A stretch of 57,089 nt of DNA from a virus (IMGVR_UViG_3300025087_001783:1-57089); one strand, 5' to 3'; positions 1 through 22,061 are shown, counted from the stretch's first letter. Translations and numbers: made by a program. Notes: a model not told the origin generated them from the sequence alone.

Positions 1-3000
1 GGAAATCGTGTTATAACACCTGACGATCCTGTTGTGCCGGATGAAGTTTATCATATGACAACCAATTTGTCAGGTATTAGAAAATCAGGAGAAATTAGTG
101 CACGCGGCAAAGGTGGGTTGGGCGGTGATCAGCACGACCAGATTGTGTCAATGACTGTCAATCGTGACGTTGCTGAGCAGTTGGTTGAAGACACGCGCAT
201 GTTATCAACGTTGGCTCACAAGTATGTCCCAACAGGTTATAAGCTCGATTGGTCTGGTAAGGATGGTCCAGTTGATGTCGGACCAATAAAATGGAAATCT
301 CCTGAACATGGAGAATGGTCAAAAGCACTTGTTGCGGATTTGAATGCTCAAGCTGTCAAAGAAGGTTGGGAATTTACGATAGATCATGAGATGCAGTTGC
401 GGGAATATGGCTTCAATGATTGGCAGCGCATGTATTTTACGCAACGTGAGCATAGAGCTAATATTCGTAATCCATTGTTTTACGGTGCAGAAGGATTGGT
501 AAGCATTAATCCTGGAAATATTGGTTACGTTACAATTCCAAGGAACAATTTGCGTACAGGCGCGTTATTGATGGATTTTGATGTTCCTGGCCCAAATGCC
601 AGCCAGTGGGAACGTGAAAATCTTTTGTATGAAATTAGGTTATATGGTGACGTGCCATTGGTTGGTGCAACGTATTACAAGGAAAAGCACACCACAGCAA
701 TCATTGCATTTGATTGTAATGATGCTGCAATCATGGATTTGTGTAAGCATCTGCCAAGCGATCACGTGGATGACTTCCACATCACCCTGGCGTTTATTGG
801 TGATGTTGCTAATATTGATGTTGAAGCACTGAAGAACAAGTTGGAAGCATTTGCTGAACAGCAAGCACCTGTAGACGGCAAATTCAACGGATATGCCTTG
901 TTTGAAGACACAGGGGATGGCATGCCATTGGTGCTGTTGTATGACAGTCCGCAGTTGCCATTTCTCAGGCAGGCCTTGCGTGAGCAGTTCGGTGATTTGA
1001 TACCGGAGCAGGATCACGGATTTACTCCGCACTGCACGTTGTCATATGTTCAGCAACCGTACGAGCTGGATTTACAAGCATTTGACAAAATGTTTGACAA
1101 GATATCCTTGTGGGTTGGCGAGGAGCATTTTGACTATCCGTTGACAGGTAATGTTGTTGAGAAGGGTGGACCAGGTTCTGGCAATAAAGGTCATGCTGGC
1201 AGACCTGGGAAAGTAGGTGGCTCATTGCCATCAGGTGCTGTGACAGTTGGCTATCATAGGACATCATTAAACGCTGCTGATGCAATTCGTGCAAATGGTT
1301 TTTCTTTGGATTATTTTGGCAAAGGTGGTGGTTTTGGTGTTGTTGAAGAACCTGCAGGCATTTTTATTTCTCCAGAAGGCACACAAGGTGATTTTGAGCG
1401 GGAAGTGAATGAACGCGGCTTGGGATTTTCTGACGTCATAAAGGTTGCTGTACAAGACAATAAAGTTTGGCGTCCTGATAAGAAGCAGATGCGTGATGAG
1501 TTTGAAAAAGTCAGACATGCGTATTTGAAGACTAAATTTAATATCAGTGACGAGATTACGTCTTTATTGGAGCGTGGTGCATGGCGTGATATGAAGCGTT
1601 TGGTTGGCGAAGAAGAGTATGCAAATAAGTACAAGAAAATTTTTATGGATTATATTGATACATTGATGGAAGTTGATATCAAGAAAGCTTTTTCTAGTCA
1701 TATAATGCGCATGGGGTACACAGCAGTTGAATGGGAAGAGCCATTGTATCATGTCAGGCAAATGGTTGTACTTGATCCTAGTGCAATTACGATAATTAAG
1801 GATCATGTTGAGAAGGGTGGCGCTGGATCAGGGAATTACGGGCACAGCGGCAGGCCAGGGAAAGTGGGGGGATCAGCAAGTTCTAGTGCATATGATATAA
1901 GTGCTGAAGAGATTGGTATCGTGTATCATGGTGGGAAGTCAAAAGTTCGTGAAGTTGATCCTGAGCTTGTAAATACACGTGATTATGGATATTATGGCGA
2001 AGGATTTTATGTAACAACTGGCAGGGACTATGCAAAGACTTATGGCAGAACGATTTCTGAGTTTAGATTTGCTGACGATACGAAAATTTTACGTTCGGAA
2101 TTGCATGCCAAGAACGCGCATGCTGATCTTGTACGAGACGTTCTTGCCAGGGAATACGAAGTTGCATACCCAAGAATAAAAGGTAATCCAACAAAAGAAG
2201 CCAATTTTGCTGCATATCTTGAAGATGTAAAAGAAAGTCCTGTAGAATGGGCGCGTGTAGTGTATGCGTTTGGTAAGGCAAAAGGTTATGATGTAATCAT
2301 GCATTCAGGTGGGGAAATTGTTGTATTGAATTATGACAAGCTGCAATTTTTGAAAGAGTATGTTGTTGAAAAGCAGCTGCCAATTGACGATGCGAGCAAA
2401 GCTGTGTTATTGGAAATCCGTAAGAACATGTTCAACGACTTGGCAGATAACCTTGCTGATAGAGTATTTACAGGGGATATGACGGTTGGAGCATGGGAAG
2501 AGGCAATGCGTAAGGCAGTCAGGGAGCTGCACGCATCAGCAGCAGCGATTGCCAAAGGTGGTTGGGATCAGATGACGCCACAGGATTGGGGTCGTTTGGG
2601 ACCACAAATGAAGGAGCAGTATCGTTATTTGCATGGTTTTGCTGAGAAAATTGCTGAAAACAGGGACACAATTAGTATTGAGGCAATCAAGGCGCGTGCG
2701 CATATGTACGGTGAAGCAGCCGGCAACACAGCGGCAATCATTGAGGCAGGGGAGTTTGCTGGTGGAACGGAGCGACAGCCTGGCAGGTTCAAAGGATTAC
2801 CATTCATGCCGAAAGACGGCAGCACGGAATGTTTTTTCTGGGCTGACAAGGTTCGAGTATATACGCGCGAGAGAGGGTATGTGCGATTGGCGTCTATATT
2901 AGTTGGTGAGCATGTGTTGACACATAAAGGTCGTTTCAAAGAAGTGTTGACTAATGATTGTAAAGCTGTTAAGGATGTAAATTCTGTTGAAATAGAAGTC

Positions 3001-3756
3001 ATGATAGGCACTAAGTTGCACAAGTTGTGCACTACGCCAGATCATAGATTCTTAGGTGCTGATGGTAAATGGATATACGCGGCAAATTTGAAAGTGGGCG
3101 GCAATCTTGCTAGACTTGGTATGCAGTGTAAGAATGATGCGTGTGATGATGTGACACATCTTCCAAAAGATGGGAAAATGCACTATTGTTCAATGAGTTG
3201 TTCATGTATTGGTGAACGTAAGTATGAAAAAGCGCACGAAAAGGCCAGAGAAATTGAGGTTGATGGTGGTTATTGGCATGGTTCTCCAGAGCGTCAACGT
3301 AGTGATGAAATTCGTGATAATGCCATAATTGAGCAAAAAGATTATGACATATATAGGTTTGATGCATGGGATGTTGTAAAGGATAAGGATTTTATTAAAG
3401 ATCAACTTGTTAGAGCTTTTGCTAATCATGATGGCAAATATATTGCGGTTGGTGATGCAGAGATTATTAGCATAAAAAGAGTTGTAAGATCAGGCACAGT
3501 TAGATGCTTGACAGTAGAAGATGACGAATCTTTTGCAGTAACTGATGGCATAATCAGCCATAATTGCCTGATGTACTGCAAGTGTTACTGGGAACTTGCT
3601 GAAATTAGCAGAAGCAAAACCGCAAAAGTCATCCAAGCTGTGTGGAAACTGTCTCCTGCTGAGCACTGTCAAACCTGTTTGGATCGCAGAAACTATACGG
3701 TGGCGTTGACGGTGCCCTTGGATACAATTGTGCCAGCAACGATAGGTGGATATTGA
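1..3756 (+). CDS. MuF-like (minor head morphogenesis) polyvalent protein: ART-like, 2H-phosphoesterase, ART-like x2, MuF-like C-terminus with intein; 5'-truncated
   Basis: Frame is open from base 1 (GNRVITPDDPVVP...). Motifs: VYHMT..VSMT..EIR; FHITL/PHCTL (2H pair); GYHRT..GF..GIFIS; VYHGG..YGEGFYVT..AKTYG..GYD..EIVV; helical MuF-like region followed by PKDGSTE/C..CKC and AEHCQTC. Lies directly upstream of the protease and capsid genes. Confidence 0.75.
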   Translation, partial: GNRVITPDDPVVPDEVYHMTTNLSGIRKSGEISARGKGGLGGDQHDQIVSMTVNRDVAEQLVEDTRMLSTLAHKYVPTGYKLDWSGKDGPVDVGPIKWKSPEHGEWSKALVADLNAQAVKEGWEFTIDHEMQLREYGFNDWQRMYFTQREHRANIRNPLFYGAEGLVSINPGNIGYVTIPRNNLRTGALLMDFDVPGPNASQWERENLLYEIRLYGDVPLVGATYYKEKHTTAIIAFDCNDAAIMDLCKHLPSDHVDDFHITLAFIGDVANIDVEALKNKLEAFAEQQAPVDGKFNGYALFEDTGDGMPLVLLYDSPQLPFLRQALREQFGDLIPEQDHGFTPHCTLSYVQQPYELDLQAFDKMFDKISLWVGEEHFDYPLTGNVVEKGGPGSGNKGHAGRPGKVGGSLPSGAVTVGYHRTSLNAADAIRANGFSLDYFGKGGGFGVVEEPAGIFISPEGTQGDFEREVNERGLGFSDVIKVAVQDNKVWRPDKKQMRDEFEKVRHAYLKTKFNISDEITSLLERGAWRDMKRLVGEEEYANKYKKIFMDYIDTLMEVDIKKAFSSHIMRMGYTAVEWEEPLYHVRQMVVLDPSAITIIKDHVEKGGAGSGNYGHSGRPGKVGGSASSSAYDISAEEIGIVYHGGKSKVREVDPELVNTRDYGYYGEGFYVTTGRDYAKTYGRTISEFRFADDTKILRSELHAKNAHADLVRDVLAREYEVAYPRIKGNPTKEANFAAYLEDVKESPVEWARVVYAFGKAKGYDVIMHSGGEIVVLNYDKLQFLKEYVVEKQLPIDDASKAVLLEIRKNMFNDLADNLADRVFTGDMTVGAWEEAMRKAVRELHASAAAIAKGGWDQMTPQDWGRLGPQMKEQYRYLHGFAEKIAENRDTISIEAIKARAHMYGEAAGNTAAIIEAGEFAGGTERQPGRFKGLPFMPKDGSTECFFWADKVRVYTRERGYVRLASILVGEHVLTHKGRFKEVLTNDCKAVKDVNSVEIEVMIGTKLHKLCTTPDHRFLGADGKWIYAANLKVGGNLARLGMQCKNDACDDVTHLPKDGKMHYCSMSCSCIGERKYEKAHEKAREIEVDGGYWHGSPERQRSDEIRDNAIIEQKDYDIYRFDAWDVVKDKDFIKDQLVRAFANHDGKYIAVGDAEIISIKRVVRSGTVRCLTVEDDESFAVTDGIISHNCLMYCKCYWELAEISRSKTAKVIQAVWKLSPAEHCQTCLDRRNYTVALTVPLDTIVPATIGGY
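688..1150 (+). other. 2H-phosphoesterase domain (2'-5' RNA ligase/LigT/Acb1-like) within the polyprotein
   Basis: Two HxT motifs, DFHITL (His at 778) and FTPHCTL (His at 1030), about 84 aa apart. Confidence 0.8.
1162..1224 (+). repeat. Gly-rich peptide tag, copy 1: KGGPGSGNKGHAGRPGKVGGS
   Basis: Near-identical 21-aa motif also at 1813-1875, 20844-20906 and 21689-21751; conserved at protein level with divergent codons. Confidence 0.95.
1813..1875 (+). repeat. Gly-rich peptide tag, copy 2: KGGAGSGNYGHSGRPGKVGGS
   Basis: Direct translation; precedes the third ART-like domain. Confidence 0.95.
2830..3564 (+). mobile_element. Intein (245 aa) in the MuF-like domain, with a Cys-rich segment and a partial DUF559/Vsr-like endonuclease
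   Basis: N-junction STE|CFFWADKVRV, block-B-like TPDHRF, C-junction FAVTDGIISHN|C; splicing restores PKDGSTE-CLMYCKC; internal IEVDGGYWH...RD...YDIYRF. Confidence 0.9.
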
Positions 3757-3777
3757 GATTTTGCATTTAATTTTTAT

Positions 3778-3811: not shown

Positions 3812-3815
3812 AATC

Positions 3816-3840: not shown

Positions 3841-3846
3841 ATTTGT

Positions 3847-5220
3847 ATGCCTTGGCATAAGCAAACGCGCGGTGATGAGATTTGTGTTACAGATAAGAGT
3901 GGCAAGCAGTTGCATTGCTATCCTAACACACCTGCAGGTGAGAAGCGCGCTGATAAGTACATTGCCGCGTTGTATGCCAATGCTGGTGAGGAAGTCAAAG
4001 AGGTTGGCGAGGGCGTCTTTATTGAAAAAGAAAAGGATGGTCGTTACAGGATCATAGCAGTATCAACAGCACAGCTGAAGGACAGGGATGGAGAAACCTT
4101 TGACGTTGGTGCCATGGACTACGATATTGCTACTGCTGAAACGACTGGTGAGTATCCTGAATTTCGTGTTTTTCATCGCAAAAATCTAGGTATCGGTAAA
4201 GTTGAGAAGATGCGCCGCGTTGGCATTTTTGCGGTTGATGAGGGGCACAGCTACACTGACCCATTTTCATTACAGGTTTGTGAGAAGATGCTCTCCAACA
4301 ATGATGGCAAGTGGAGAGTATCGCGAGGATTTTATGCGCTGGAAGTCAGTGGCGGCTGTCCGCATTGTAATGAAAATTTGCTTGTAGAAAAGCAAAATAT
4401 GGTTGTAGGTTTTCTGTGCCCAACTTGCAAGACGTACCACCCACAGTACAAGGGAGTGCTCAAAGACGTGCACTTTCGTAAGACCAGAACGTTTGATGTG
4501 TCGGTGACAGATGTTCCCTGCGTCCCATACACAGGCGTTACTGCAATGAAGGATTTACCAACAACTGATCTGGAGGATGACATGGCATTAACTAAGAAGG
4601 ATTTGGAGAAAAAGCTGCGGGACGCAGGTGTATCCAAGGAAGCTATTGATGAGCGTCTTGGAAGCCTGACCGACGCGCAGCTGAAGGAGTTTAGCGACAT
4701 CCCATTTGCGCAGGTGCTCAAAGAGCTGGATGTGGAAACTCCCGAGAGCGACGAGCCGGAGGCAGTCGATCTTGACGAGATGCTGAAGGAAATTGCAGCT
4801 ATTGTTCGCAAAGAGGTTGAAGAGGCAGTTGAGGAAAAGCTGCGCACCGTGCTGGATGGCCTGGAGCTGAACGTTCCTGACATCGAGATCCCGGAGATGA
4901 AAGAGCTTGCCAAGATTGTAGAACTGGCTGCGGAAATCACAGAGCTTAAGGAAGCTGTCGAGGCATTGGCTCGTACTGATCAGGAGCGCCTGAAGGAGCT
5001 TATGTCTGACATGCCTCGAAATGGAAAACTGCGCGTGGCACGCTTCAAGGCCAAGAAACCTCCCATGGAGGACGAAGAGGAAGACGAAGAAGATGAAGAA
5101 AGCGAAGAAGAAATGCCCATGGCCCTGCGCAAAAAGCAGCATGATGCTGGAATGCGCATTATCGGCGCAGATGGCTTCAGTGCAGCCAGCATGACCGAAT
5201 TTATCTCGGGAGGTAAGTAA
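3847..5220 (+). CDS. Prohead protease/scaffold fusion
   Basis: HK97-type protease-like pattern (DRDGE..VFH..GIGKV..VSRGF..DVSV) with a CPHC/CPTC insert; acidic coiled-coil C-terminus; GGAGG RBS; directly upstream of the capsid gene. Confidence 0.7.
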   Translation: MPWHKQTRGDEICVTDKSGKQLHCYPNTPAGEKRADKYIAALYANAGEEVKEVGEGVFIEKEKDGRYRIIAVSTAQLKDRDGETFDVGAMDYDIATAETTGEYPEFRVFHRKNLGIGKVEKMRRVGIFAVDEGHSYTDPFSLQVCEKMLSNNDGKWRVSRGFYALEVSGGCPHCNENLLVEKQNMVVGFLCPTCKTYHPQYKGVLKDVHFRKTRTFDVSVTDVPCVPYTGVTAMKDLPTTDLEDDMALTKKDLEKKLRDAGVSKEAIDERLGSLTDAQLKEFSDIPFAQVLKELDVETPESDEPEAVDLDEMLKEIAAIVRKEVEEAVEEKLRTVLDGLELNVPDIEIPEMKELAKIVELAAEITELKEAVEALARTDQERLKELMSDMPRNGKLRVARFKAKKPPMEDEEEDEEDEESEEEMPMALRKKQHDAGMRIIGADGFSAASMTEFISGGK

Positions 5221-5222
5221 CA

Positions 5223-6719
5223 ATGGCTAAAATCCATCGCACTAACAAAAGTCCGTTGATGGGTATTTTCGACGGCATCCGCAGCGACCCTGATGAGCTG
5301 GCACGGTTTGGCGCTGCAATTGGCCTCGGTATTGCGCAGGCGCAGAATGTTGAGCGTGGGCGCATGCTGCCGATGTTCAAAGAGTCTCAGGGTGATATGG
5401 TCCCCAAGACCTATAGCATCTATGGTCGTTACAGCATCTTCGATCCGTGTAGCCCTGGGGACGTGTTTGGGTTGCAGGTGCAGACGGTTGGCCTGATGCC
5501 TTGGCTTGGATGGCGTCCGAATCGGTTCTACCGTCGGCGCGTGGATTTCATTCCTTGGTATGGTCCTGAGGGCACTGTGGCATGTAACAGCACTACTGGT
5601 GCTGGCAATCCATGCGATGACCCCAAGGGATGGGAGTATGGAGTTTGTGGTTATGACCTGGTGCATACCAGCTGGTACCATCGTGCTGGTGATCCCCTCA
5701 ATCCGCACACTATCACTCAGGATCGCTGCGAGACCACGCCGCGCTATCGCCTGAATGGTATGATGATCGCAGATGATGTTGAGTGGCAGATGAATGGTAT
5801 CATGAACGTTCTGCAGCAGGACCTGCGCCGCGACATGATCCACGGCAATCACGACAATGCCTATCAGATGGACGGCCTGGAAAACCTGGTGGTGACTGGG
5901 TACACTAATGATAATGGCACTACATGCCCGCAGATTGACAGCGCTGTTATTGATTGGGCACATGACGATCTGGATGGCGACGTCAACGGGTATGGCAATT
6001 TCTTCAACTACCTGGATGAGCTGGTCACTGAGATCGAGTATCGCGCCAGCGCCATCGGCACCATTGCCGAAACGGACATGGTGTTGCTGACCAGTCGGTT
6101 CATGGCAACCTGTCTGCTGGATGCTTATGCTTGCTACACCACTTGCGGTGTGACGTCTGACAATGACGTTACTGACCAGGCTCTCCGAGGTCAGCAGCGC
6201 GCGGCACGCATGGCGCTGAATGCTGGACCGCTGTATGACGGTGCTTCTGCAGTCGGATATCTGCCGCTGAAGAGCGGTCGGCGCGTCCCGATCATCGTTG
6301 ACGATGCCCTGGATATTGACAAATTCAATACCACATACTGCACTGACATCTACCTGCTGGTCCGCAGGATTGGCAGCATCGACGTGCTGTATGGCGAGTA
6401 TTTGGATCTGCGTGTGTACGAGAGCCGTGTGCGCGCCAAGTTCCCGGACTTCACCGTTCGGGCTGACGCTGCTGGGCGGTTTGTTACCAAAGGCAAAGAG
6501 GACAACTGGTGCTTGCAGCTTCAGATGGGCACCAGCCCTGAAATCTACATTGCTGCTCCTTGGGCACAGGCTCGATTCCAGGATGTCTGCTGCGCACGCC
6601 AGCGCCAGCCTCTGACTGGTGATCCGTTCCTGCCTAACAAGTACTATATGCCTGGTGGCAAGCCGGTACACTCTGCGTGGTTTGACGTTCCTGAAGGCAA
6701 CGATCAGACTGGTCTGTAG
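5223..6719 (+). CDS. Major capsid protein
   Basis: 498 aa after protease/scaffold, GGAGG RBS, C-ending codon bias, HK97-like 'MDGLENLV' segment, followed by a strong hairpin. Confidence 0.75.
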   Translation: MAKIHRTNKSPLMGIFDGIRSDPDELARFGAAIGLGIAQAQNVERGRMLPMFKESQGDMVPKTYSIYGRYSIFDPCSPGDVFGLQVQTVGLMPWLGWRPNRFYRRRVDFIPWYGPEGTVACNSTTGAGNPCDDPKGWEYGVCGYDLVHTSWYHRAGDPLNPHTITQDRCETTPRYRLNGMMIADDVEWQMNGIMNVLQQDLRRDMIHGNHDNAYQMDGLENLVVTGYTNDNGTTCPQIDSAVIDWAHDDLDGDVNGYGNFFNYLDELVTEIEYRASAIGTIAETDMVLLTSRFMATCLLDAYACYTTCGVTSDNDVTDQALRGQQRAARMALNAGPLYDGASAVGYLPLKSGRRVPIIVDDALDIDKFNTTYCTDIYLLVRRIGSIDVLYGEYLDLRVYESRVRAKFPDFTVRADAAGRFVTKGKEDNWCLQLQMGTSPEIYIAAPWAQARFQDVCCARQRQPLTGDPFLPNKYYMPGGKPVHSAWFDVPEGNDQTGL

Positions 6720-6929: not shown

Positions 6930-7775
6930 ATGACAATCATTTTTGCAAAAACACGTTGGCCTTATGACAGCTATCAGGATCTGTGGAAGCTGGTAGAGTT
7001 GTCTGGTTTTCCTGTTTGCTTTGTGGATGAGATGGACATTTTTAACCAGGAGCATACTTATGTCACAGCACCGTTCAATGGCGAGTTGCTGGACTTCATG
7101 AACGATTACAGGCGCAATAACAAGCGCGCTGAAATCGTACTGTGGAATCTGGAGCGTCCTGGTGGCTCAGGTACAATTGAGGAGTACATACGATCCAATA
7201 CAGAGCATATCCATAATGGGCATATCAGCAGGGTCATTGTATCGGACAAACAGCTGGCGCGTGACACAGGCTTCCAGTACGTGACTTTGGGATCGCATCC
7301 TGACCTCGGATCTCCGATTTTCATTCAGGATAAGGCATATGACGTCATACACCTGATGTGTTATAGCAATCGCAGAGGGCCATGGTTCAGCTATCCTGGA
7401 AATGAGTGGCACGCGTTGCAGTATGAGAATGACGTCATAAAAATCGCTCCGAATTGCTGGGGAGAGGAGCGACACAAAGCTCTACAGCAGTCCAGGTTTA
7501 TGCTAAGCATTCACCAGGACGATTTTATGTATATTGAACCATTGCGCCTTACATTGGCAGCTGCCTACGGATTACCAATAATTTCAGAAGAATGTGCGGA
7601 CTATTTCCCATACACGGATTGTGCAAAGACCAGTAATGCGGATGCATTGAAGAATGTTGCGCGATTAGTGAAGGAATATCTGCGTGACGATCACTGGTAT
7701 TTCCAGGGATTGAGGTTGCGAACGTTGATGACAGAAGAGTTTACATTTAGGAGATGCTTGGAGGAGATGCTATGA
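6930..7775 (+). CDS. Glycosyltransferase, GT-B/CgeB-like
   Basis: C-terminal SRFMLSIHQ..EPLRLTLAAAYGLPIISE resembles the GT-B (Glyco_trans_1_2-like) signature. Confidence 0.55.
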   Translation: MTIIFAKTRWPYDSYQDLWKLVELSGFPVCFVDEMDIFNQEHTYVTAPFNGELLDFMNDYRRNNKRAEIVLWNLERPGGSGTIEEYIRSNTEHIHNGHISRVIVSDKQLARDTGFQYVTLGSHPDLGSPIFIQDKAYDVIHLMCYSNRRGPWFSYPGNEWHALQYENDVIKIAPNCWGEERHKALQQSRFMLSIHQDDFMYIEPLRLTLAAAYGLPIISEECADYFPYTDCAKTSNADALKNVARLVKEYLRDDHWYFQGLRLRTLMTEEFTFRRCLEEML

Positions 7776-7972
7776 TTGAATTACCTCCTGGTGCAATACT
7801 GAAAATTGTGGAAGATGCCCTTAAATTTAGAGAGGACAAAGAAAGAGCTGTGTATAATTGTAAATATTTTAAGCGCAAGCTAGTGCTGGATGGGCAATTA
7901 GTACTGCCTGGGTTTGAAGGCATTATGCTAGAAAATCGTTTGGCGCCTTGGGGAATTGAGGTTATACAATGA
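7772..7972 (+). CDS. Small hypothetical protein with GQLVLPGFE motif
   Basis: GGAGGAG RBS, ATGA overlap with the upstream gene; motif shared with the next ORF. Confidence 0.6.
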   Translation: MIELPPGAILKIVEDALKFREDKERAVYNCKYFKRKLVLDGQLVLPGFEGIMLENRLAPWGIEVIQ

Positions 7973-8154
7973 GTTATGAGTATGATATTGTGGATGCGTT
8001 TGCATACATTATGGAGAAGCGAGAAATGGCATATTTTGCTAAAATGTTTAAATCTGGTGCAAGATTGTCAGTGTCAGGACAGCTGGTGCTACCTGGATTT
8101 GAGATTATGATTTTGCTCACGTGCCCCTCGTTGAAGAATGTTGAGATAATATAA
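7969..8154 (+). CDS. Small hypothetical protein with GQLVLPGFE motif (paralog of the previous ORF)
   Basis: GAGG RBS; translationally coupled on both sides. Confidence 0.6.
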   Translation: MSYEYDIVDAFAYIMEKREMAYFAKMFKSGARLSVSGQLVLPGFEIMILLTCPSLKNVEII

Positions 8155-8891
8155 TGATTGCAGCTTGCTATGTTTTGCACTACGGTAAAGAGTGGTTGCA
8201 GTGGTCCATGCGCAGCGTCAAGGATTTTGTTGATGATATCTATATTTTCTACTCCGCAACCCCCAGTCATGGTCACAGGACCACGATGACATGTCCGGAA
8301 ACTCGCAATGAGCTGTACGATATTGCCAGGGGTGCGTATTGGATCGACTGCGGTCCGTTCGGATGGGAGGGACAGCATCGGGATTTTGCATGCGACACAT
8401 TGAGAGATGCTGGTTACGATCAGATTTTGGTTGTGGATGCAGACGAGATATGGCCACCTGAATTGCTGCACAACTTTATTGAATTTTCAAAGAATAGCAG
8501 TGCCAAGAAGATACGGGTTGGCATGCGGCATTTTTGGCGGTCGCTGAAGTGGGTGTGCGATGACAGCACTGAACCACTCCGCATGTTCAATGTGCATGCC
8601 GACAATAAAGATGAGGTATACTACCCGCTCGATGGTGGAAAGGTCTACCATATGGGGTATGCCCAGAGCGCGACCATCATGCTTTACAAAATTTCCATTC
8701 ATGGGCATAAATCTGAATGGAGAGGAAATTGGTATCAGGAAAAGTTCTTGAATTGGAAGCCTGGTGATCTGGATGTGCATCCAACATGCGAGCGCAACTT
8801 CTGGGATCCGAAACCGTTTGTTGACGAGGATGGTACGCTGGAGTATTTGGTTGGCGACCATCCGTACTATAACCTGGATATTATACGATGA
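8154..8891 (+). CDS. Glycosyltransferase family 2-like (GT-A)
   Basis: N-terminal 'SMRSVKDFVDDIYI', DxD motif VVDADE, HMGY. Confidence 0.75.
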   Translation: MIAACYVLHYGKEWLQWSMRSVKDFVDDIYIFYSATPSHGHRTTMTCPETRNELYDIARGAYWIDCGPFGWEGQHRDFACDTLRDAGYDQILVVDADEIWPPELLHNFIEFSKNSSAKKIRVGMRHFWRSLKWVCDDSTEPLRMFNVHADNKDEVYYPLDGGKVYHMGYAQSATIMLYKISIHGHKSEWRGNWYQEKFLNWKPGDLDVHPTCERNFWDPKPFVDEDGTLEYLVGDHPYYNLDIIR

Positions 8892-10919: not shown

Positions 10920-11113
10920 AGATTAGAGACCTGATAAAAGCATTACAGTATATCGAAGAATCGTATGGAGATATTGAAGTACAACTACAGTCAGGGTTGC
11001 CGGAAAAAGCTCTTCCTGATTGGGTAAAGTATGTGTCATACCCTGAGTTCTTTGTTGTGCCAGAACTGTATGAAGAAGGTATGATAGTTAATTTGCGCAA
11101 TTGGCCATATTAG
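10916..11113 (+). CDS. Hypothetical protein
   Basis: 65-aa ORF with GAGG RBS, coupled to the upstream gene. Confidence 0.55.
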   Translation: MKIRDLIKALQYIEESYGDIEVQLQSGLPEKALPDWVKYVSYPEFFVVPELYEEGMIVNLRNWPY

Positions 11114-11120
11114 GTGTAGA

Positions 11121-12351: not shown

Positions 12352-13235
12352 TAACAGGCGCCAGCGGGCTGCTGGGAAAATATTTGTTGGGGTGCGTACC
12401 AGAGGGTGTTGAAGCGTTTGGCACGCATTACTGCAACTTCAATGGCAAGCAGGATTATCATTTGGATGTGCTGAGCACAGATGAAATCAATTATGTGTTC
12501 ATGTACGCGCGTCCGAATATCGTCATTCATTTGGCAGCGATTGGATCGGTTGATTTTTGTGAGCGAAACCCGTTCTTTGCGGACAGGGTCAATATTGGTG
12601 GGACTGCCCACATTGTTGATGCTTGCCAGCGATATGGTGCTAAAATTGTACTGTTGAGCACCAACGCTGTGTTTGATGGAACGCATCCACCGTACAAAGA
12701 GGAAGACCATCGCAACCCGCTTTCGGTATATGGGCATAGCAAAGTCAAGGCTGAGGATATTGTTGCGGAGTGTGATGACTTTTTGGTGGTGCGCACAGCG
12801 CGTATGTTTGGACGTAACTGGCGTGCAGGTAGGGACAACTGGCTGGACATTGTGCCTAATCGGCTGAGTGCTGGTAAGGTTCTTGAAGTTGTAACGGATG
12901 ATATTGGCAGACCAACCTATGCTGGTAATCTGGCTGAAACTGTATGGGACCTGCTAGAAATTGGCGCCAAAGGCTTCTATCACGTGGCAGGTGACGACAG
13001 TATTAGCATGTACCAGTTTGCGCGATTGATTGCCGAGACATACAACGTGTACCATGAGCATCCCCTGGACGTTGATCTAATCAAGCCTGTTACTACCAAA
13101 GAGAAATTTCCACATATTGCTACCAGGCCTGCTAACACAACGTTTGACCTGACAAAGTACTACAATACCAACGTGCGCAAGGTTGGAACCACGCAGCAAG
13201 GCTTGGATCGGATGGCAATACGAGGAGAGTTATGA
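12330..13235 (+). CDS. rmlD: dTDP-4-dehydrorhamnose reductase (SDR)
   Basis: ITGASGLLG, HLAA..VDFCE, STNAVFDG, YGHSK, PTYA, RP motifs. Confidence 0.9.
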   Translation: MEHTRVLITGASGLLGKYLLGCVPEGVEAFGTHYCNFNGKQDYHLDVLSTDEINYVFMYARPNIVIHLAAIGSVDFCERNPFFADRVNIGGTAHIVDACQRYGAKIVLLSTNAVFDGTHPPYKEEDHRNPLSVYGHSKVKAEDIVAECDDFLVVRTARMFGRNWRAGRDNWLDIVPNRLSAGKVLEVVTDDIGRPTYAGNLAETVWDLLEIGAKGFYHVAGDDSISMYQFARLIAETYNVYHEHPLDVDLIKPVTTKEKFPHIATRPANTTFDLTKYYNTNVRKVGTTQQGLDRMAIRGEL

Positions 13236-14080
13236 AACCTATCAGTGGTGCGACATTCATCAGAGACAACGAGGAAGGCGCGTTTTGCCTGTATGAAAGT
13301 ATGGCAAGCGTATTACCATTTGTTACTGACATGCACATCTTGGATGTCGGTAGTACTGATGGGACATTGCAGTGGCTGCAGTCTATTGCTGCAGTCAACC
13401 CAAAAATACACATACATCAGGGACGTTGGAGTGTTGTAGACGCGAAAGCGTTTGCGGACGCGGCCAATGATGCTATCTTGCTTTGTCAGAATGATGTGGT
13501 GTGGTTTTGGCAAGCGGATGAAATTCCCCACCAAAACGTGTTGAAGATGCTGCCTGAGTATATCAATACCCATGACAACCTGGTATTTTGGCGATATCAG
13601 CTGCGGGACAACTTCCAGGCGATGAAATGGTTCCCGCATCCTGTACACAGAATTGGAACCAAGCGCGACCTGCTATTGGTTGGGGATGGTATGAACACCA
13701 AGAACGTTTTTGGCTATGACGTTATTGGTGATTACAACCAGGGATGGTTCACAAAGTGGGGGACGATGAATGAGTTGGACATTCCTGTTGAGCAGATGGT
13801 GTTGGATGTCAGCCTGGTGGGGGCATTCAGGGAAAACATTATTGGAAGACGTAAACTGCATGCTCCGATGTGGCATGAAACGGATCATATCGAGGGCAAG
13901 AAACCCGACCAGTGGTACAAGGATGCGGTTGCTAATGATGCGTGGACAACGCAAACCACGCCATTCGATCTACCTGAAATTATGCGTTGGCATGTTGGTC
14001 GTGTAAAATATGCTATACGACCGCAGTTGATTGATGCATTGAAAGCTGATAGTACAGAGGAGATAATTGGTCTATTATGA
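13232..14080 (+). CDS. Glycosyltransferase family 2
   Basis: ILDVGSTDGT and WQADE motifs; paralogous to 10185-10919. Confidence 0.8.
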   Translation: MKPISGATFIRDNEEGAFCLYESMASVLPFVTDMHILDVGSTDGTLQWLQSIAAVNPKIHIHQGRWSVVDAKAFADAANDAILLCQNDVVWFWQADEIPHQNVLKMLPEYINTHDNLVFWRYQLRDNFQAMKWFPHPVHRIGTKRDLLLVGDGMNTKNVFGYDVIGDYNQGWFTKWGTMNELDIPVEQMVLDVSLVGAFRENIIGRRKLHAPMWHETDHIEGKKPDQWYKDAVANDAWTTQTTPFDLPEIMRWHVGRVKYAIRPQLIDALKADSTEEIIGLL

Positions 14081-14721
14081 AATTTACAATGAAACAACTG
14101 CAGGAATTGATTGCGATGGCGAAGGCTGATTTTGTCACACCAGATCCATATCTGAATAGTCAGCACGACGCGTCTACAAAGCTGATTGGGCATACCAACC
14201 CGTATTACCCGCTGTTTTATCTCATTTCCAAAACATTTCAGCCGGCAATGGTTGTTGAGCTTGGCAGCTGGCGAGCGTATGGCGCGTCCCATTTTGCTGG
14301 TGGCAATCCTGCTGGTAAGGTGGCAACCATTGACATCCACAAGGACGATCCTCTTGCCCAACAGCTTACGTTGGAAGCCCAGGCGCATTACGGTAACTTG
14401 AGATATTTTCATTCTTGGACGTGGGACGCTGTACCATTACTGCTGGAGCATTATGGTAAGCTGAGCATTGATGTGCTGTTTATTGATGCGTGGCATACCT
14501 ATGAGTATGCTATGCGGGAGTGGAAGCTATTTGGCCCGTACATGGCTGATAACTCTCTTGTGATTTGTGATGATCTGTTCAATGCTGCTGGCGCGTGCGA
14601 AAACATGATCCAGTGGTGGGAAGATTTTCAAAAAGATTCGCATATCAAAGAGAGCTTTCTGGATGGCGGGTTGCATCCTGGTGTTCCTATGGGATTTGCG
14701 AGGTATGTCAAAAATGGATAA
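14077..14721 (+). CDS. Class I SAM methyltransferase (Methyltransf_24-like)
   Basis: VELGSWRAYG, LFIDAWHTY, ICDD. Confidence 0.85.
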   Translation: MKFTMKQLQELIAMAKADFVTPDPYLNSQHDASTKLIGHTNPYYPLFYLISKTFQPAMVVELGSWRAYGASHFAGGNPAGKVATIDIHKDDPLAQQLTLEAQAHYGNLRYFHSWTWDAVPLLLEHYGKLSIDVLFIDAWHTYEYAMREWKLFGPYMADNSLVICDDLFNAAGACENMIQWWEDFQKDSHIKESFLDGGLHPGVPMGFARYVKNG

Positions 14722-15337
14722 TGTATTTGCCGATATCAACGAGTTAGTAAAACAGGCTGCGCAACCACTGGGTGATGAGTGGTTGGATGGGTACTACAAG
14801 GCATATCAGGATCATGTCAGCACACGGCTGAATTATTATCGCTTTTTGTATTTGATGGTTATGCATTTCAAGCCTGCTGTTGCTATCGAGTTGGGAGTTG
14901 AATTTGGGTTGGCATCGGCACATATGGCACGCGCTGCCGCCACATATGGTGGGACAGTCATTGGCGTAGATCATAACTATCACTCCGCACCTATGGAGAT
15001 TGTTGCGTATTGCAAGAACTACAACTACAGATTGGCAGATACCGTTGCAGCATTTCCGGATGTTAAGATGCTAGTGGATGGCAGGCCTGTCGGCTTGCTG
15101 TTCCAGGACTCGTCACACCACTATTTGGAGAGCAAGCGCGAGTTCGAGTTGTATTCAACCCTTATGTCAAAAGGTTCGTACTGGGTGTGTGATGACATTT
15201 TGCCAGCGTTCCATGATCCAAAGGTGGATCCTCCTGGAAAGGGGATGGTTGAATACTTTTGGGAATTGCCTGGTTATAAGCGCACCTATCCGGAGGTTCT
15301 AAATAAGGGTAATACTATAGGAATAGTAAAATTATGA
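14714..15337 (+). CDS. Class I SAM methyltransferase (Methyltransf_24-like)
   Basis: IELGVEFG, LFQDSSHHY, VCDD; start uncertain (14705 or 14714). Confidence 0.85.
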   Translation: MDNVFADINELVKQAAQPLGDEWLDGYYKAYQDHVSTRLNYYRFLYLMVMHFKPAVAIELGVEFGLASAHMARAAATYGGTVIGVDHNYHSAPMEIVAYCKNYNYRLADTVAAFPDVKMLVDGRPVGLLFQDSSHHYLESKREFELYSTLMSKGSYWVCDDILPAFHDPKVDPPGKGMVEYFWELPGYKRTYPEVLNKGNTIGIVKL

Positions 15338-15900
15338 TCACTGCTGGTCGTATTAGAGAGCTTGCCAAGCAGGCTCCAAATGAAAAAGTTTATCCAGATC
15401 AGCGATTCCCGCCGTCGATATACTACCGATTTATGAAGTTGCTGGCTGCGGAGATACAACCTACGAATAGCGTGGTATTAGGAGTGTGCGGAGGTGGGGA
15501 CTGTTTACATCTGGCGCAGGGATGGCCCGCTGGACAGGTGTATGGCGTAGATTATGCCAGGGATCACGTCGATAACATTAAGCATGTCGAGGCAACGTTC
15601 CCAAATTTTCATTTTCTGTGGAACGACTCGATTGATGTCATTAAATCCTTTGACAAGTTTAGCGGTCCGTGCGTGGATATATTGTTTATTGATACAATTC
15701 ATACCTATGAGCGTACCATTAGAGAATTTTATGCGTGGCAGCGTGTCCTCAATCCTGGTGCAGTGGTTATGCTGGATGATCTGTACAGGGATGGCATGCT
15801 TGCAGCATGGACAGATTTGCCTGGAGCAAAAATCCGATTGGACGAGTTGCATCTAGGTGGAAGTCCTACAGATGGCGGGTTTGGGGTGATATTGCTATGA
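15334..15900 (+). CDS. Class I SAM methyltransferase (Methyltransf_24-like)
   Basis: VVLGVCGG, LFIDTIHTY, MLDD. Confidence 0.85.
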   Translation: MITAGRIRELAKQAPNEKVYPDQRFPPSIYYRFMKLLAAEIQPTNSVVLGVCGGGDCLHLAQGWPAGQVYGVDYARDHVDNIKHVEATFPNFHFLWNDSIDVIKSFDKFSGPCVDILFIDTIHTYERTIREFYAWQRVLNPGAVVMLDDLYRDGMLAAWTDLPGAKIRLDELHLGGSPTDGGFGVILL

Positions 15901-16472
15901 GTGATGCACAAAACGTTGTTCAGCATTGTATAAAGATTGGTCTAGAGTACGATCCTCCCAAAGAGATATTGGAGTATTGTGGTGCGTATTATTCGCCGTA
16001 TTACAACTTTGCGTACGCGATGATGTGCGCTGCTGGAACGTATTGGCCATCGGTGGTTGCTGTAGAGTTGGGAGTTGAAAAAGCGCGCTGCTCTTTCAGT
16101 ATGCTGCAGTACGAAAATGGTATCGTGATCGGATTAGATACCCATCCAACTGTTGAAGCCAGCAGGCTGGCATTGCGAGAGCCACGCTTCATCTACCTCA
16201 ATCAACCCAGCTCCCAGGTTCCAGTCAATATACTTGAGCACAAGCGCATTTCCATTTTGCATATCGATACAGAGCATTCTTACGGCATGGCGAAAATGGA
16301 GTTTGAGGCATATTTCCCGTATTTGACGAATCCTGCATTTGTGTTGTTTGATGATATTCACGCCATGAACGACGATGTGTTGAAGTTCGTCAAGGAGCTG
16401 CCGTACTATAAAGTTATTGAAGATCGCTTGCATCCAATTTGTGGTTATGCTGTTGTGGCTGTGGAGACGTAA
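15897..16472 (+). CDS. Class I SAM methyltransferase (Methyltransf_24-like)
   Basis: VELGVEKA, LHIDTEHSY, LFDD. Confidence 0.85.
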   Translation: MSDAQNVVQHCIKIGLEYDPPKEILEYCGAYYSPYYNFAYAMMCAAGTYWPSVVAVELGVEKARCSFSMLQYENGIVIGLDTHPTVEASRLALREPRFIYLNQPSSQVPVNILEHKRISILHIDTEHSYGMAKMEFEAYFPYLTNPAFVLFDDIHAMNDDVLKFVKELPYYKVIEDRLHPICGYAVVAVET

Positions 16473-16473
16473 A

Positions 16474-18149
16474 ATGATTGTAAGTATTGTGACCGGCACC
16501 TATAATCGTCTCCAGCATTTGCACAACATGATCTACAGCGCGCGCAACTCAATTGGGTTGGGTATGGAGTATGAGATTATCGTTGTAGACGGTGGTAGTA
16601 CGGATGGCACGCTTGAATGGTGCAAGGAGCAGCCCGATGTCAAGCTGATTGAGCATGGGGAGCTGCGTGGCGCTGTGAAGGCATTCAATGATGGAGCGCG
16701 TGCCTCCAGTGGCTTGTATGTCATATTGGCGAATGACGATATCGTTTTTATTAACGAGAGTATCATGACAGCCGTGGCCTTTATGCAGGACAATCCTGGT
16801 GTTGGTATCGGCTGTTTTTATCAGGATCGTTACAAGCAGGATTGGCATGTTGAGCAAATGCCGGCAGTAATAAACGGACGCCAGATTAGCGCGTATTATG
16901 GGCAGGTTTGTATCGTACAACGTTGGTTGGGGGATCTTGTAGGTTGGTGGGGGGACTATTTGCGCACATATGGCGGGGATAATGAGCTGAGCTGCAATGT
17001 GCTGGAGGCAGGTTATAAGTACTGCCGATAGAATGTGCGCAGATACATGATACAACTCCCATGGATGGTTTGCGCAAGATCAATAATGATAATGTTATAA
17101 AACGTGGTAAGCACCCTGACACGGAGGCATTCGTCAAGCATTGGACACATGCAAATGGTAGAAAGGGTGCTATCATCAATTCCAAGCCGATACCTCGTCA
17201 GGATGTGCAACGCTTTCGGCGCGTTCTGTACGCACCAATTTACGAGCCAGGATACAGCATACAGAAGAAATCCAAACGAGGTTTGCGTGATGCACTGGCG
17301 AGGCGCATGTTGGTTGTGGAATGTGATTATGTTGCACAAACGTTCGATTATGTGTTCGACCTGGCGAACGCGTTTGATCCGGACCTGATTATCACTCAAA
17401 TTCAAAGCGTTGACATCAAGCTGAATGCTGAGACTATCAGGGAGTTACGCCACGAGCACCCAGGCGCCAAGTTTGTAAACTGGAATGGCGATTATCATCC
17501 TGAGCATCTATATAGTCCGGATTATATAGCTTTGCTTAAGCAGTTTGACTTGAATGGCTTTTGCACAACAGCAATTCAAGACAGGTACGAAGCGGAGGGA
17601 GTGCGTTGGTTCTACTGGCAAATAGGTTGCGAAGAGACCAACGTTGCATCTGATAAGTTTACACCCTGTTACGATTTGTTATTCTTGGCAAATGGTTATA
17701 GTGATGACCGCAAGCATCTGGTTGACATATTGCGTAGGCAGCGATTTACAACAGGTTTGTACGGTATTTGGCCTCCAGAGTATGGATCTAGAGGTAACAA
17801 CCTGTACGATTTTGACGGTGGTGCCAGGTTGTATCAGGCAAGCAAATTGGCACTGAGCGATAGCCAGTGGCCAGATGTGAACGGATATTGCAGTAACAGG
17901 CTGTTCCAGGCTATGGAAGCTGGTGCGTGCTTATTGCAGCAGCGGTTTGCAGGTATGGAGGAGTTATTAGGATTGGTGGATGGCGAGAATATCGTGGTTT
18001 GGGACAAGGCTGAAGATCTGCTGGATAGGATAGATTATTACTTGCACCATGACGAGGAGCGTCGCACTATAGCCAGGAATGCACGTGAGTTTATGCGTGC
18101 ACATCATAGCTTTGATGTGCGAGTGCAGGAATTGCTGGCGTATGTATAA
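16474..18149 (+). CDS. Two-domain glycosyltransferase (GT2 + CgeB-like GT-B) interrupted by a 1-nt frameshift near 17019
   Basis: 16474-17031 has SIVTGTYNR, VVDGGSTDGT, ANDD; a -1 shift at GGTTATAAG^T gives GYKVLPIECAQIHDTTPM, joining 17061-18149 (SNRLFQAMEAGACLL). Confidence 0.75.
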
Positions 18150-19413
18150 CGTCACGATTATCATCCCAGTTTATTGTACCAATCAGCAGGGATTGAATTG
18201 GCTGGATGAGTGTTTGCAGAGTGCATTGGCACAGGAATGCGCAGTGGTGGCATATGACGATGGATCTACGGTAAATGTTAGGGAGGTGCTAAGTAAATAT
18301 AATATAACATATTCCTATCGCGACGAGCACCTGGGTGTTAGTGCAGCAAGAAATGCTTGTGCTGAGCTTGCAAAAACATCGTTGATATTACCATTAGATT
18401 GTGATGACAGGCTCAAACCTGGTGCTGTAGAGAAACTGGTGTATAGATGGGCAGGTGTGCCAGTATACCCAGACCTGGAGAAATTTGGTAAGGTCCGTGA
18501 TCCGCATTACAGGTTGATGGATTTTCATTGTGATCACGTGCTAAACTATGTAGGATTTACAAGCGTGAACGTGCTGCACTCTGTAGAGCAGCATAAGGCA
18601 ATTGGTGGTTGGGACACCAGCCTGGATTTTTATGAAGATGGCGAGTATAATGCCAGGCTGTTGGGAACATATTGTGGACTTCATCTTGCGGAGCCGTTGG
18701 TTGAATACAGGATACATGACCACCAGCGCACGCAACAATATAAGAAGCAAGCAGCCCAGTACACAGCTGTCTTGCTCAATAAAATTAGGAGTTATGAAAT
18801 GGCCTGTAGAACATGTGGTGGAAAGCGCAGAACGGGTTTTGGCAACGATCCTACTCGTCCTGCTGCACAGACTAGTACACTCAATGCAACAGCTACTACG
18901 CGCGGTCCAATTGTTCAGGTGTCAGTTGGGGAAAGCTGGCGATCCTTGCCAAGCGAGTTCGAGGGCAGGATTTTGGCGCGTTATGTTGGCGGCAAGGGCA
19001 AAGGTCGGCATTACTATCAGGGTAAAATCTCTAACATTCCATATCGTGTTACTCATGGAGACGTGCTGTACGCGGACGCGCGGGATGTTCGGGATGCCGA
19101 GAACACTGCTGACACTCGCCAGCTGGTGCGTATCAAGCAGGAAGAGCTGGCGTCCAAGCCAGAGCCGGCAAAGGTTGTAGAGCCGGAGCTTCCCCAACTT
19201 GTTGAAGAGAAAGTTGAGCCGACTCCTGAACCTACTGCTCCAGTTGTCAAGGAGCTGCCTGAATTGAGCAACATGACAGTGGATGACGTGCTGGCACTGG
19301 ATTTGAGCGAACATGATGTACCAGCAATGATCCGTTCCGAGGCACGCGGCAAGAATCGCAAGGTTGTTATCAGCTACCTGAAGAACAAGGTGAAGCGTGG
19401 TGGAGCTAAATGA
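18142..19413 (+). CDS. Glycosyltransferase family 2 fused to a CxxC-starting, Pro/Glu-rich region ending in a LEM/Rho-N-like helical domain
   Basis: TIIIPVY, YDDGS, PLDCDD, GGWD..YEDGE; in-frame internal AGGAG+ATG at 18799 (MACRTCGG); C-terminal EARGKNRKVVISYL. Confidence 0.75.
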   Translation: MYNVTIIIPVYCTNQQGLNWLDECLQSALAQECAVVAYDDGSTVNVREVLSKYNITYSYRDEHLGVSAARNACAELAKTSLILPLDCDDRLKPGAVEKLVYRWAGVPVYPDLEKFGKVRDPHYRLMDFHCDHVLNYVGFTSVNVLHSVEQHKAIGGWDTSLDFYEDGEYNARLLGTYCGLHLAEPLVEYRIHDHQRTQQYKKQAAQYTAVLLNKIRSYEMACRTCGGKRRTGFGNDPTRPAAQTSTLNATATTRGPIVQVSVGESWRSLPSEFEGRILARYVGGKGKGRHYYQGKISNIPYRVTHGDVLYADARDVRDAENTADTRQLVRIKQEELASKPEPAKVVEPELPQLVEEKVEPTPEPTAPVVKELPELSNMTVDDVLALDLSEHDVPAMIRSEARGKNRKVVISYLKNKVKRGGAK

Positions 19414-20811: not shown

Positions 20812-20822
20812 AGAGAGAGATT

Positions 20823-21215
20823 ATGAAATACAAAATCGTGCTCAAAGGTGGCGCAGGATCAGGAAACTATGGTCATGCAGGTAGACCTGGTAAGATAGGT
20901 GGAAGTTCCGAAGGTGGTGGAAAGGCATTTAGTCTTGATGATACGCGGATTGAAGACATAACAAAAGTTGCGTTTCCTAAAAGATATGGACGCAAAATGC
21001 GTATCACACAAAGATATGACACAAATGACGAAGCGCAATCCACTATACGAAAGATAGATAGAAATTTACGTAGGGATGGGTGGAAATATGTTGGAATTGT
21101 AGATACACACGCTGCAGCTAGACGATATCAAAAAGATGGTAGTGTTCTTGATATTAGCAAGCAGTGGATGCCCAGGTATGGTTACACTGTGCATGCGCAG
21201 TTGATAGAGGAATAG
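20823..21215 (+). CDS. Small protein with N-terminal Gly-rich tag (copy 3, 20844-20906)
   Basis: MKYKIVL-KGGAGSGNYGHAGRPGKIGGS followed by an unrelated ~100-aa basic domain. Confidence 0.75.
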   Translation: MKYKIVLKGGAGSGNYGHAGRPGKIGGSSEGGGKAFSLDDTRIEDITKVAFPKRYGRKMRITQRYDTNDEAQSTIRKIDRNLRRDGWKYVGIVDTHAAARRYQKDGSVLDISKQWMPRYGYTVHAQLIEE

Positions 21216-21236
21216 TGGCAAAGATGGAGAATACTC

Positions 21237-21668
21237 ATGGACAACTTGATTAACACGCTTTGGCTCGTATTTGCTGCAGCAATGCTCGTGCTGCTATTTG
21301 CAGGAGCAATGGAAATCAATAAATACCTGCTCAAAACCGGCAAGCACCCTGCACTCAGGCACTGGATGGCCCAGGCAATTACCCTGGCATATAAGACCAG
21401 CGACCAGGTATTTGATGCCACCAACCAGCGCCTATATGGAGTTGACAAGGTTGGGATTATCAAAATCATCTACACTATGCTGCCTGAAGTGATCATCGTG
21501 TTTGGGTTGAGGATGTACTGGAAGCGTTATGTCAGTCAGGACATGTTCGTTGCCCAGGTAAGTAAGTACTACGATGAGCTGGTGGAGCAGTATCATCTTG
21601 TACAGCATGCAGTATTGCGGGAAATGATCGAAGCTGTCGGTGCCGAAATGCCTGTTGTGGAGGACTAA
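21237..21668 (+). CDS. Possible holin (LL-H-like) or membrane protein
   Basis: Single N-terminal TM helix followed by A..AY...DQ..G.DK pattern; GGAG RBS. Confidence 0.4.
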   Translation: MDNLINTLWLVFAAAMLVLLFAGAMEINKYLLKTGKHPALRHWMAQAITLAYKTSDQVFDATNQRLYGVDKVGIIKIIYTMLPEVIIVFGLRMYWKRYVSQDMFVAQVSKYYDELVEQYHLVQHAVLREMIEAVGAEMPVVED

Positions 21669-22061
21669 TGAAATGCAAAATTAGACTCAAAGGTGGTCCA
21701 GGAAGTGGAAATAGAGGCCATGCTGGCAGGCCAGGGAAAGTTGGAGGCAGTTCTAGTGCTGGCGGTGGTGCAAATAAGGTGCGTGGCGTTAATAGTTATG
21801 GAGTTGATCTTGACAAGGTTATTATACACATGGGGGAGAAGTGGTCATGATTACAAAGGTGGCACAGTAATTAGTGTTGAAGATAGTGATTATGGGGCAT
21901 CGTTTAAGGTCACGCTTGGTTTGCACATTCCTGGTACCAAGCCTTATGTTGTAGAAGTACCCGATTGGAAAATCCGCAGGTTGACAGGTTCTGTAGATGA
22001 CATTTCGGATATTCCTGAAGATGTGCCATTTGATCTGAGACCGCATCTTACAGGCCTGTAA
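21668..22061 (+). pseudogene. Small tagged protein (tag copy 4, 21689-21751), frameshifted near 21824
   Basis: MKCKIRL-KGGPGSGNRGHAGRPGKVGGS frame stops at 21850; the +1 frame continues YTWGRSGHDYKGGTVISV... to 22061. Confidence 0.55.

Follow-up and report, generated by a model that had tools for sequence, protein, structure and literature searches.

The stretch IMGVR_UViG_3300025087_001783:1-57089 (57,089 bases of viral DNA, hereafter called the window) encodes four copies of a glycine-rich 21-residue peptide, KGGxGSGNxGHxGRPGKxGGS, which we call the tag. The tag is widespread and phage-specific rather than private to the window phage. It is a header, nearly always followed by a domain-sized module. 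A new observation is that the residue directly before its GG does not vary within one phage and goes with the lineage of the phage head. The tag probably marks proteins that travel inside the virus head, and the explanation that we favour, and regard as fairly probable, is a protease site specific to the lineage and, behind it, a universal header that the cargo keeps once released.

When the window was scanned in six frames for the core G.GSGN.GH.GRPG, exactly four matches were obtained, all on the + strand (1168-1209, 1819-1860, 20850-20891 and 21695-21736), and the full 21-residue copies occupy 1162-1224, 1813-1875, 20844-20906 and 21689-21751. A degenerate DNA pattern of the tag also matched four times in the window and not once in any of 100 dinucleotide shuffles, so that the four copies listed by the original prediction, a note made from this sequence before our analysis, were all found in place with none expected. 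Copies 1 and 2 (KGGPGSGNKGHAGRPGKVGGS and KGGAGSGNYGHSGRPGKVGGS) lie inside an open reading frame (ORF) that is open at its 5' end (1-3756), and copies 3 and 4 head two small genes after leaders of 8 residues. Between pairs of copies, compared over 29 codons, 19-23 residues are common and the identical codon is used at only 5-9 of those, in agreement with the earlier claim that codons differ while residues are conserved. The nucleotide identity between copies is 56-67%, and the synonymous sites are randomised. Since the codons are scrambled while the residues are kept, selection acts on the peptide.

A DNA-pattern scan of IMG/VR found the tag in at least 161 stretches and at least 189 distinct contexts, and a second scan yielded 418 confirmed tag stretches. 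An alignment of 140 copies contains 13 invariant columns, including S, N, H, R and P, and when the profile of these copies was searched against 1.84 billion proteins, 5,869 cluster representatives were obtained at E<=1e-3, 915 at E<=1e-10 and 156 at E<=1e-30. Single proteins carry up to 10 copies. Among 185,579 genomes of cellular species, the tag occurs in only 66 stretches. When 54 tag ORFs from cellular genomes were compared with Pfam, 27 contained a known family and the other 27 none. The families of the 27 matched ORFs are all either head-assembly families (Phage_portal_3 in 11, Phage_Mu_F in 3, and Portal_Mu, Peptidase_S78 and DUF2213 in one each) or effector or toxin families (NUDIX in 12, Zeta_toxin in 4, Ntox50 in 2, and PBECR3, ADP-ribosyltransferase (ART) and Gln_amidase), and no housekeeping family was found among them.

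The position of the tag within proteins is that of a header. From the last tag to the stop codon the median distance is 269 residues (153 last tags), with fewer than 40 residues in only one case; tag-to-tag gaps are at least 109 residues (43 gaps), and in the 150 best proteins one tag follows another at a median spacing of 220 residues. At the N-terminal side, no more than 16 residues separate 30 of 203 first tags from the earliest start that their ORF allows, the leaders being, for example, MKLSIRFK or MTITLLVRVK; leaders can be as short as 7-10 residues. An AF2 model of the tag alone shows no secondary structure, with a predicted local distance difference test (pLDDT) score of 60.6. The contexts, the codon usage and the spacing thus bear out the earlier view of a portable peptide, kept by selection in front of unrelated modules. 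The predicted link to head assembly also held, because elsewhere the tag is carried by fusions with portal, MuF and head-protease domains.

Of all positions, the one before GG is the most specific to the phage. Its identity is 0.73 within proteins and 0.28 overall, while at -5 to -10 two flanks from one protein resemble each other no more than two from different proteins. We sorted the residues before GG from 47 distinct contigs into the classes K, D, N, E and L/A/F. All 33 contigs with two or more tags were homogeneous by class, 29 of them strictly, against a mean of 3.8 and a maximum of 11 in 10,000 shuffles. In the window, K directly precedes GG in all four copies (VVEK, HVEK, IVLK and IRLK). 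When the E-type contigs were scanned, Portal_T4 exceeded its cut-off in 6 of 11, compared with 0 of 25 non-E contigs, and Peptidase_S77, the gp21 family, was found in 3 of the 5 E-type contigs tested and in 0 of 5 K- or D-type contigs. In the T4-portal contigs, GG is preceded by LFE, LLE, ILE, FFE, FAE or ITE. T4 gp21 is described as cutting after L/I-X-E (PMC9026906), and the E-type residues of these contigs therefore match the gp21 site. The stand-alone tagged genes of T4-like phages begin with propeptides of ~20 residues that end in L-F-E, and two of these contain QEFV. The capsid targeting sequence (CTS) of T4 is reported to contain QEFI (PMC8442874), which the QEFV of the tagged genes closely resembles in sequence.

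Other classes go with other head proteins. The D-type contigs contain Phage_portal_3 in 5 of 6 cases and DUF2213 in 4 of 6, and the L/A-type contigs give weaker matches to the same families (4 of 6 and 5 of 6, respectively) together with fusions of portals to 2H phosphoesterase domains. The DUF2213 ORFs match PHROGs annotated as head maturation protease, and the literature searched on DUF2213 yielded nothing on cleavage specificity. In the Phage_portal_3 fusions from cellular genomes, D stands before GG in all 9 distinct tags, and the S78 fusion has K at this position.

A candidate for the cleaving enzyme of the window phage lies directly downstream of the ORF 1-3756. The gene at 3847-5220 (+) encodes a protein with a predicted assemblin fold at about residues 59-250, a Zn-ribbon insert and an acidic, helical scaffold-like tail. 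An AF2 model of its first 250 residues has a mean pLDDT of 85.6. When this model was compared with solved folds using VIA-align, the best scores were obtained for the proteases of varicella-zoster virus (Z 11.3; 124 aligned residues, root-mean-square deviation (rmsd) 3.0) and human cytomegalovirus (Z 9.5) and for T4 gp21 (Z 8.9; 128 aligned residues, rmsd 3.1), and the next unrelated chain scored 5.2. The top rows of a Foldseek search with the same model were all herpesvirus proteases. On this basis the gene is classed, by its modelled fold rather than by a Pfam family, as an assemblin-fold head maturation protease. When residues 1-250 were compared with Pfam at E<=1, only zinc ribbons matched, with neither Peptidase_S78 (PF04586) nor Peptidase_S77 (PF03420) among the results, and a profile of the protease family gave chance-level rows only against PDB sequences. 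The protein has at least 139 relatives, none with a Pfam domain, and no cultured relatives were found. An atlas lead pointed, at 0.92, to a cluster in which 69% of the members carry Peptidase_S78. Residues H110, S73, S141 and S159, which may include the catalytic His and Ser, are invariant among 38 relatives, and so is a four-cysteine zinc ribbon (C171, C174, C191 and C194; 4357-4428) inserted in the protease domain. Co-folding of residues 1-236 with the tag alignment gave 0.01, 0.61 and 0.02, where the mark was 0.32; obtained without control runs, these scores count neither for nor against an interaction.

We propose that the functional unit comprises a short lineage-specific stretch, the invariant core GGxGSGNxGHxGRPGxxGGS and a Gly/Ser linker, and that it would mark the start of each cargo module carried inside the head. 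The head-maturation protease of each phage would cut between the residue before GG and GG itself; in the window, this would be the predicted assemblin-fold enzyme of 3847-5220, cutting after K. Assemblin-type proteases favour a small residue after the cut, and GG would supply one. Cleavage would free the modules of the polyprotein and strip the 8-residue leaders from the two small proteins, and each released module would then start with the invariant core. Entry into the prohead would most likely be provided by the part upstream of the cut, which is a carrier domain (portal, MuF or protease) in the case of fused modules and the short leader in the case of stand-alone genes, in the manner of the T4 CTS. 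The cut after Lys that had been proposed for the window is plausible, given the K before GG in all four copies, the phage-specific nature of this position and the gp21 parallel in T4-like phages. The K-E/E-K and xKE patterns that had been proposed with it are not general, as the residue two before GG is variable in K-type phages.

Several observations weigh against this explanation. The number of independent lineages is small, and the six E-type contigs with a T4 portal fall into about two groups; shared descent could thus produce the link between residue and lineage, at least in part. One E-type contig that is rated 100% complete lacks Portal_T4, and its sites, MTE and YRE, do not fit L/I-x-E. 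The link from K to S78 is thin, since the Pfam S78 model matched only 1 of 5 K-type contigs and not the window protease. The same model matched 0 of 5 D-type contigs; it is too insensitive for the K-type lineage, and when the A2 profile was run on 919 ORFs, only three K-type loci were matched, weakly. Both small genes of the window lie far from the head genes, and one of them has almost no cargo. No tagged cultured phage was found, and cleavage, packaging and ejection of the tagged proteins are read from sequence. Finally, cleavage does not explain the invariant core, because different proteases are not expected to need one invariant prime side of 20 residues. For the core, our leading guesses are that it docks on assemblin-fold proteases from the prime side, or that it serves after cleavage as an N-terminal cap or a threading leader. 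In a bolder form, which we put forward tentatively and consider rather doubtful, the core would be a universal, lineage-independent signal that acts once the protease has exposed the new N-terminus. Such a signal might act as a leader in threading or ejection, or as a peptide that docks to some reader shared by all tailed phages, for example the channel of portal and tail, the packaged DNA or the assemblin-fold protease.

The original prediction had described the tag as a routing signal within a system of capsid cargo loading and protease release, and its portable peptide, its head link and its Lys cut fit our results. The routing role fits them less well. It is unlikely, in our judgement, that the tag itself is the capsid address, binding a prohead component (capsid protein, scaffold, portal or protease) and bringing in whatever is fused to it, with cleavage as a secondary event. 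The tag is indeed the sole element common to all stand-alone tagged proteins and fused modules, leaders can be very short, and encapsulins, which are HK97-fold shells, load cargo by short Gly-rich peptides. However, the same core is found in T4-type, Phage_portal_3/DUF2213 and HK97-type lineages, whose head proteins differ greatly, and modules fused to a portal or MuF domain retain the tag even though they already have an entry route. Moreover, in T4-like phages the tag follows the CTS-like propeptide and the cut site. As it is on the mature side of that propeptide, routing is more likely to be performed by the leader or the carrier domain, and the tag is probably not the routing signal. Two further expectations failed as well: tagged genes are not restricted to head modules, as those beside replication genes in the window and in the tag-bearing relative L292 show, and the tag does not go with one protease type, since gp21-type, DUF2213-type and S78 or assemblin-like proteases all occur. 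A tag that cleaves itself, by Asn cyclisation as at N-x-x-H sites of the NPTH type or by a Gly-Ser acyl shift, would dispense with a phage protease altogether. The invariance of the core across head lineages and its invariant S, N, H and R would suit such chemistry, and the N-x-G-H spacing recalls the NPTH of type III secretion switch proteins. We nevertheless find it improbable, because self-cleavage does not predict that the residue before GG varies with head lineage or equals the gp21 site, and because known self-cleaving sites lie in strained loops of folded proteins, while the peptide alone has no predicted fold.

Two other explanations deal with the sequence character of the tag rather than with its processing. 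Its glycine content, the Gly/Ser runs that follow it, the lack of predicted structure and its interdomain position are what a generic flexible linker without a specific reader would show. However, such a linker would hardly hold N, H, R and P among 13 invariant columns over 140 copies with scrambled codons, nor would it stand at the N-terminus of single-domain proteins after 8-residue leaders and be almost absent from cellular genomes, and we give this explanation very little credence. Equally far-fetched in our view is a recombination joint at the DNA level for module shuffling, or a short oligomerising element of the collagen-like or polyglycine-II kind. The same leader and tag do precede different modules in related phages, as a joint would predict, but the low DNA identity of the copies and their randomised synonymous sites indicate that the conserved thing is the peptide and not a DNA joint. 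As for oligomerisation, Gly occupies every third residue from GN to GGS, giving five successive G-x-x triplets; a stable triple helix needs more than five. An AT-hook reading of the GRP triplet was dropped, the residue after GRPG being most often E.

A close known counterpart of the proposed cleavage and header is the CTS system of T4, in which gp21 cuts an N-terminal propeptide off the internal proteins and Alt at a short site; this cargo remains inside the head until its ejection (PMC9026906, PMC8442874). A short propeptide before unrelated cargo is common to both, with leaders of 8 residues in the window genes, and in the T4-portal contigs a CTS-like leader with L/I/F-x-E at its end precedes the tag. 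In contrast, the T4 proteins are not described with an invariant mature-side core of 20 residues, and the tag core is common to lineages with gp21-type, DUF2213-type and S78-like proteases. All four copies of the window have K ahead of GG, and Pfam gives no S77 or S78 match for the window protease; the L/I-x-E feature belongs to E-type relatives only. The window phage may work in a manner analogous to the T4 CTS system, but it is not a member of it.

The polyvalent proteins of phages are a second counterpart. According to the main text of PMC5512222 (Iyer, Burroughs, Anand, de Souza, Aravind 2017), they combine many effector domains (2H, ART, NUDIX, toxins), are joined to MuF or portal domains in late genes, and are proposed to enter the host with the DNA, with processing by built-in metallopeptidase (MPTase) domains. 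The ORF 1-3756 is similar in that it joins a 2H domain, a module with weak DUF3990/ART likeness, two that match no family, and an intein. Its next genes downstream encode the protease-scaffold protein and the candidate capsid protein, and its missing 5' end might have held a portal. It differs in its module boundaries, where a conserved tag follows a probable head-protease site. The terms linker, glycine and GRPG are not mentioned in that main text, and the motif might be present in the supplementary domain alignments of the paper. In MuF polymorphic toxins of temperate phages, a MuF head domain is combined with variable C-terminal toxin domains (PMC5576092, Jamet et al. 2017). In the window, by contrast, the MuF-like part is C-terminal and putative, and the tag also heads proteins without MuF; linker, glycine and cleavage terms do not occur in the main text of that paper.

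Cargo is brought into HK97-fold shells by encapsulin cargo-loading peptides and by the targeting peptide of the HK97 protease. These are C-terminal and shell-specific, whereas the tag is an N-terminal header that is invariant across head lineages; only 1 of 153 last tags has fewer than 40 residues between it and the stop codon. The tag is absent from the papers and family libraries that we searched: tag strings did not occur in the literature, further word searches found nothing on it, and no model of Pfam, PHROGs or NCBIfam covers it. When a 35-residue tag segment was compared with 50,697 phage records using tblastn, no match was obtained, probably owing to low-complexity masking. The whole polyprotein matched 83 phage records, only through its 2H domain, including tag-free genes of Arthrobacter and Gordonia phages. 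A search for cultured relatives with an E-type polyprotein gave one weak match, and one with a D-type portal fusion led to the cultured Faecalibacterium phage FP_Brigit. This phage encodes a portal-NUDIX fusion (8908-11394) with a different short header where its relatives have the tag. The header consists of an HPRD..GQF core and a Gly/Ser linker ahead of the last module, and could be an experimental entry point.

The ORF 1-3756 (+) encodes a probable polyvalent cargo protein truncated at its 5' end, of which 1251 residues are seen. Its order is a module without a family, a 2H phosphoesterase, NVVEK, tag 1, module 1, DHVEK, tag 2, module 2, YVVEK without a tag, and a MuF-like region split by an intein, all on the + strand. 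The 2H domain (757-1134, residues 253-378) matches Pfam 2_5_RNA_ligase2 with 50.8 bits (cut-off 27) and LigT_PEase with 35.9 bits, and has the two H-x-T/S motifs of the family, HITL at residue 260 and HCTL at residue 344; based on this profile match and both motifs, we assign it to the 2H phosphoesterases. It bears a weak likeness to Acb1, a protein acting against the cyclic-oligonucleotide-based antiphage signalling system (CBASS), at 16.6 bits, below the cut-off. Elsewhere, 2H domains are fused to the portals of four L/A-type phages and to head-protease genes of Arthrobacter and Gordonia phages.

NVVEK before tag 1 (1150-1164) would be a protease site with the cut after K388, and DHVEK before tag 2 (1801-1815) is a second proposed site. 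Module 1 (1225-1800, ~190 residues) matched no family in the Pfam search, and a search with tag plus module 1 found no stand-alone relatives, with nothing at 1e-5. Module 2 (1876-2373) is weakly similar to DUF3990 (28.9 bits) and ART-PolyVal (18.7 bits), both under the cut-off, and its closing YVVEK is the third junction of the VVEK/HVEK form, but free of a tag. Of the two modules that had been labelled ART-like, module 2 thus keeps the label weakly and module 1 loses it.

The MuF-like region consists of an N-extein (2374-2829), with a match to phrog_24776 at residues 815-911, and a C-extein that includes the stop codon (3565-3756). No Pfam match, including Phage_Mu_F (PF04233), was found for the joined region (2374-2829 plus 3565-3753), and an hhalign comparison with 8 MuF ORFs gave a probability of 56% (E 1.1e-4, 74 columns) in an alignment whose end enters the intein; the name MuF-like, taken over from the original prediction, is therefore not confirmed as it was given. 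The intein between the exteins (2830-3564; 245 residues, 944-1188) matches NCBIfam intein_Cterm with 28.7 bits (cut-off 15.6) and Pfam Intein_splicing with 31.5 bits, below the cut-off of 35.8. It starts with C944 and ends with HN1187-1188, followed by C1189, as expected of an intein. Inteins also occur in portal or terminase-like ORFs of four tag-bearing relatives, and the MuF fusion of a fifth is likewise interrupted by one.

Two small genes carry the remaining tags. Gene A (20823-21215, +; 130 residues) starts at the ATG at 20823 with the leader MKYKIVLK, followed by tag copy 3, a Gly-rich linker and a module of ~95 residues that matched no known family in Pfam or PHROG; a word-index search with the protein gave 11 matches among 29 candidates. 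Gene B (21668-21850, +; 60 residues) starts at the ATG at 21668 with the leader MKCKIRLK, followed by tag copy 4. The leaders and tags are as had been predicted, but gene B has just 32 residues after its tag, an outlier among last tags, and may be a truncated, frameshifted or decaying cargo gene. An ORF of 87 codons in another frame, from the ATG at 21798 to 22061, overlaps its end, and no relatives were found for this ORF (21798-22058) when they were sought as a frameshift test. Leaders like those of the window, together with the tag, head three proteins with different C-termini elsewhere, and the leader and tag of gene B begin one of these, of 115 residues. Between genes A and B (21237-21668) lies a gene whose 143-residue product is hydrophobic at its N-terminus and matched no family.

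Genes A and B are ~14 kb from the capsid gene and stand beside replication genes. L292 also has stand-alone tagged genes among its replication genes, and tagged genes outside head modules therefore recur. One gene of this relative (8122-8796), surrounded by recombination and radical-SAM genes, encodes a stand-alone ADP-ribosyltransferase (67 bits) that begins with a leader of 11 residues and the tag.

The window belongs to a siphovirus-like phage with a tape measure, Dit, tail genes and a replication block. Gene annotation found neither a terminase large subunit nor a portal in the 57,089 bases, and the genome is thus incomplete. A match to a terminase small subunit PHROG (phrog_800, E 6e-19) lies at 33682-34287, among replication genes and far from the head genes. 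The candidate major capsid protein (5223-6719, +) was named from its position and from an atlas lead to SU10_MCP clusters at 0.96-0.97; it matched nothing in Pfam or PHROG. Directly after it follows a 12-kb island (6930-19413) of glycosyltransferases, five Methyltransf_24 genes and an RmlD-like reductase, with a GIY-YIG/NUMOD3 homing endonuclease at 9409-10188. Comparable sugar and methyl clusters lie beside the head genes of four K-type relatives, including L292.

Injected phage proteins are the first weapons against host defences, and they are hard to recognise by sequence. Among the injected proteins of the window phage would be a 2H phosphoesterase, with its weak likeness to Acb1, and a module weakly similar to ART. 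If the favoured explanation is true, a header behind a protease site would flag cargo directly in the genomes of uncultured phages, the tag would mark the module boundaries of giant polyvalent proteins, and the residue before GG would predict the protease specificity of each phage. The question raised by these results is what reads a peptide that is invariant across lineages whose other head proteins barely align. If the core is indeed a universal signal, any tag-bearing protein would be an injected effector, a sequence-only rule would list thousands of them in metagenomes, and foreign proteins could be loaded into phage heads by means of the tag as a portable handle.

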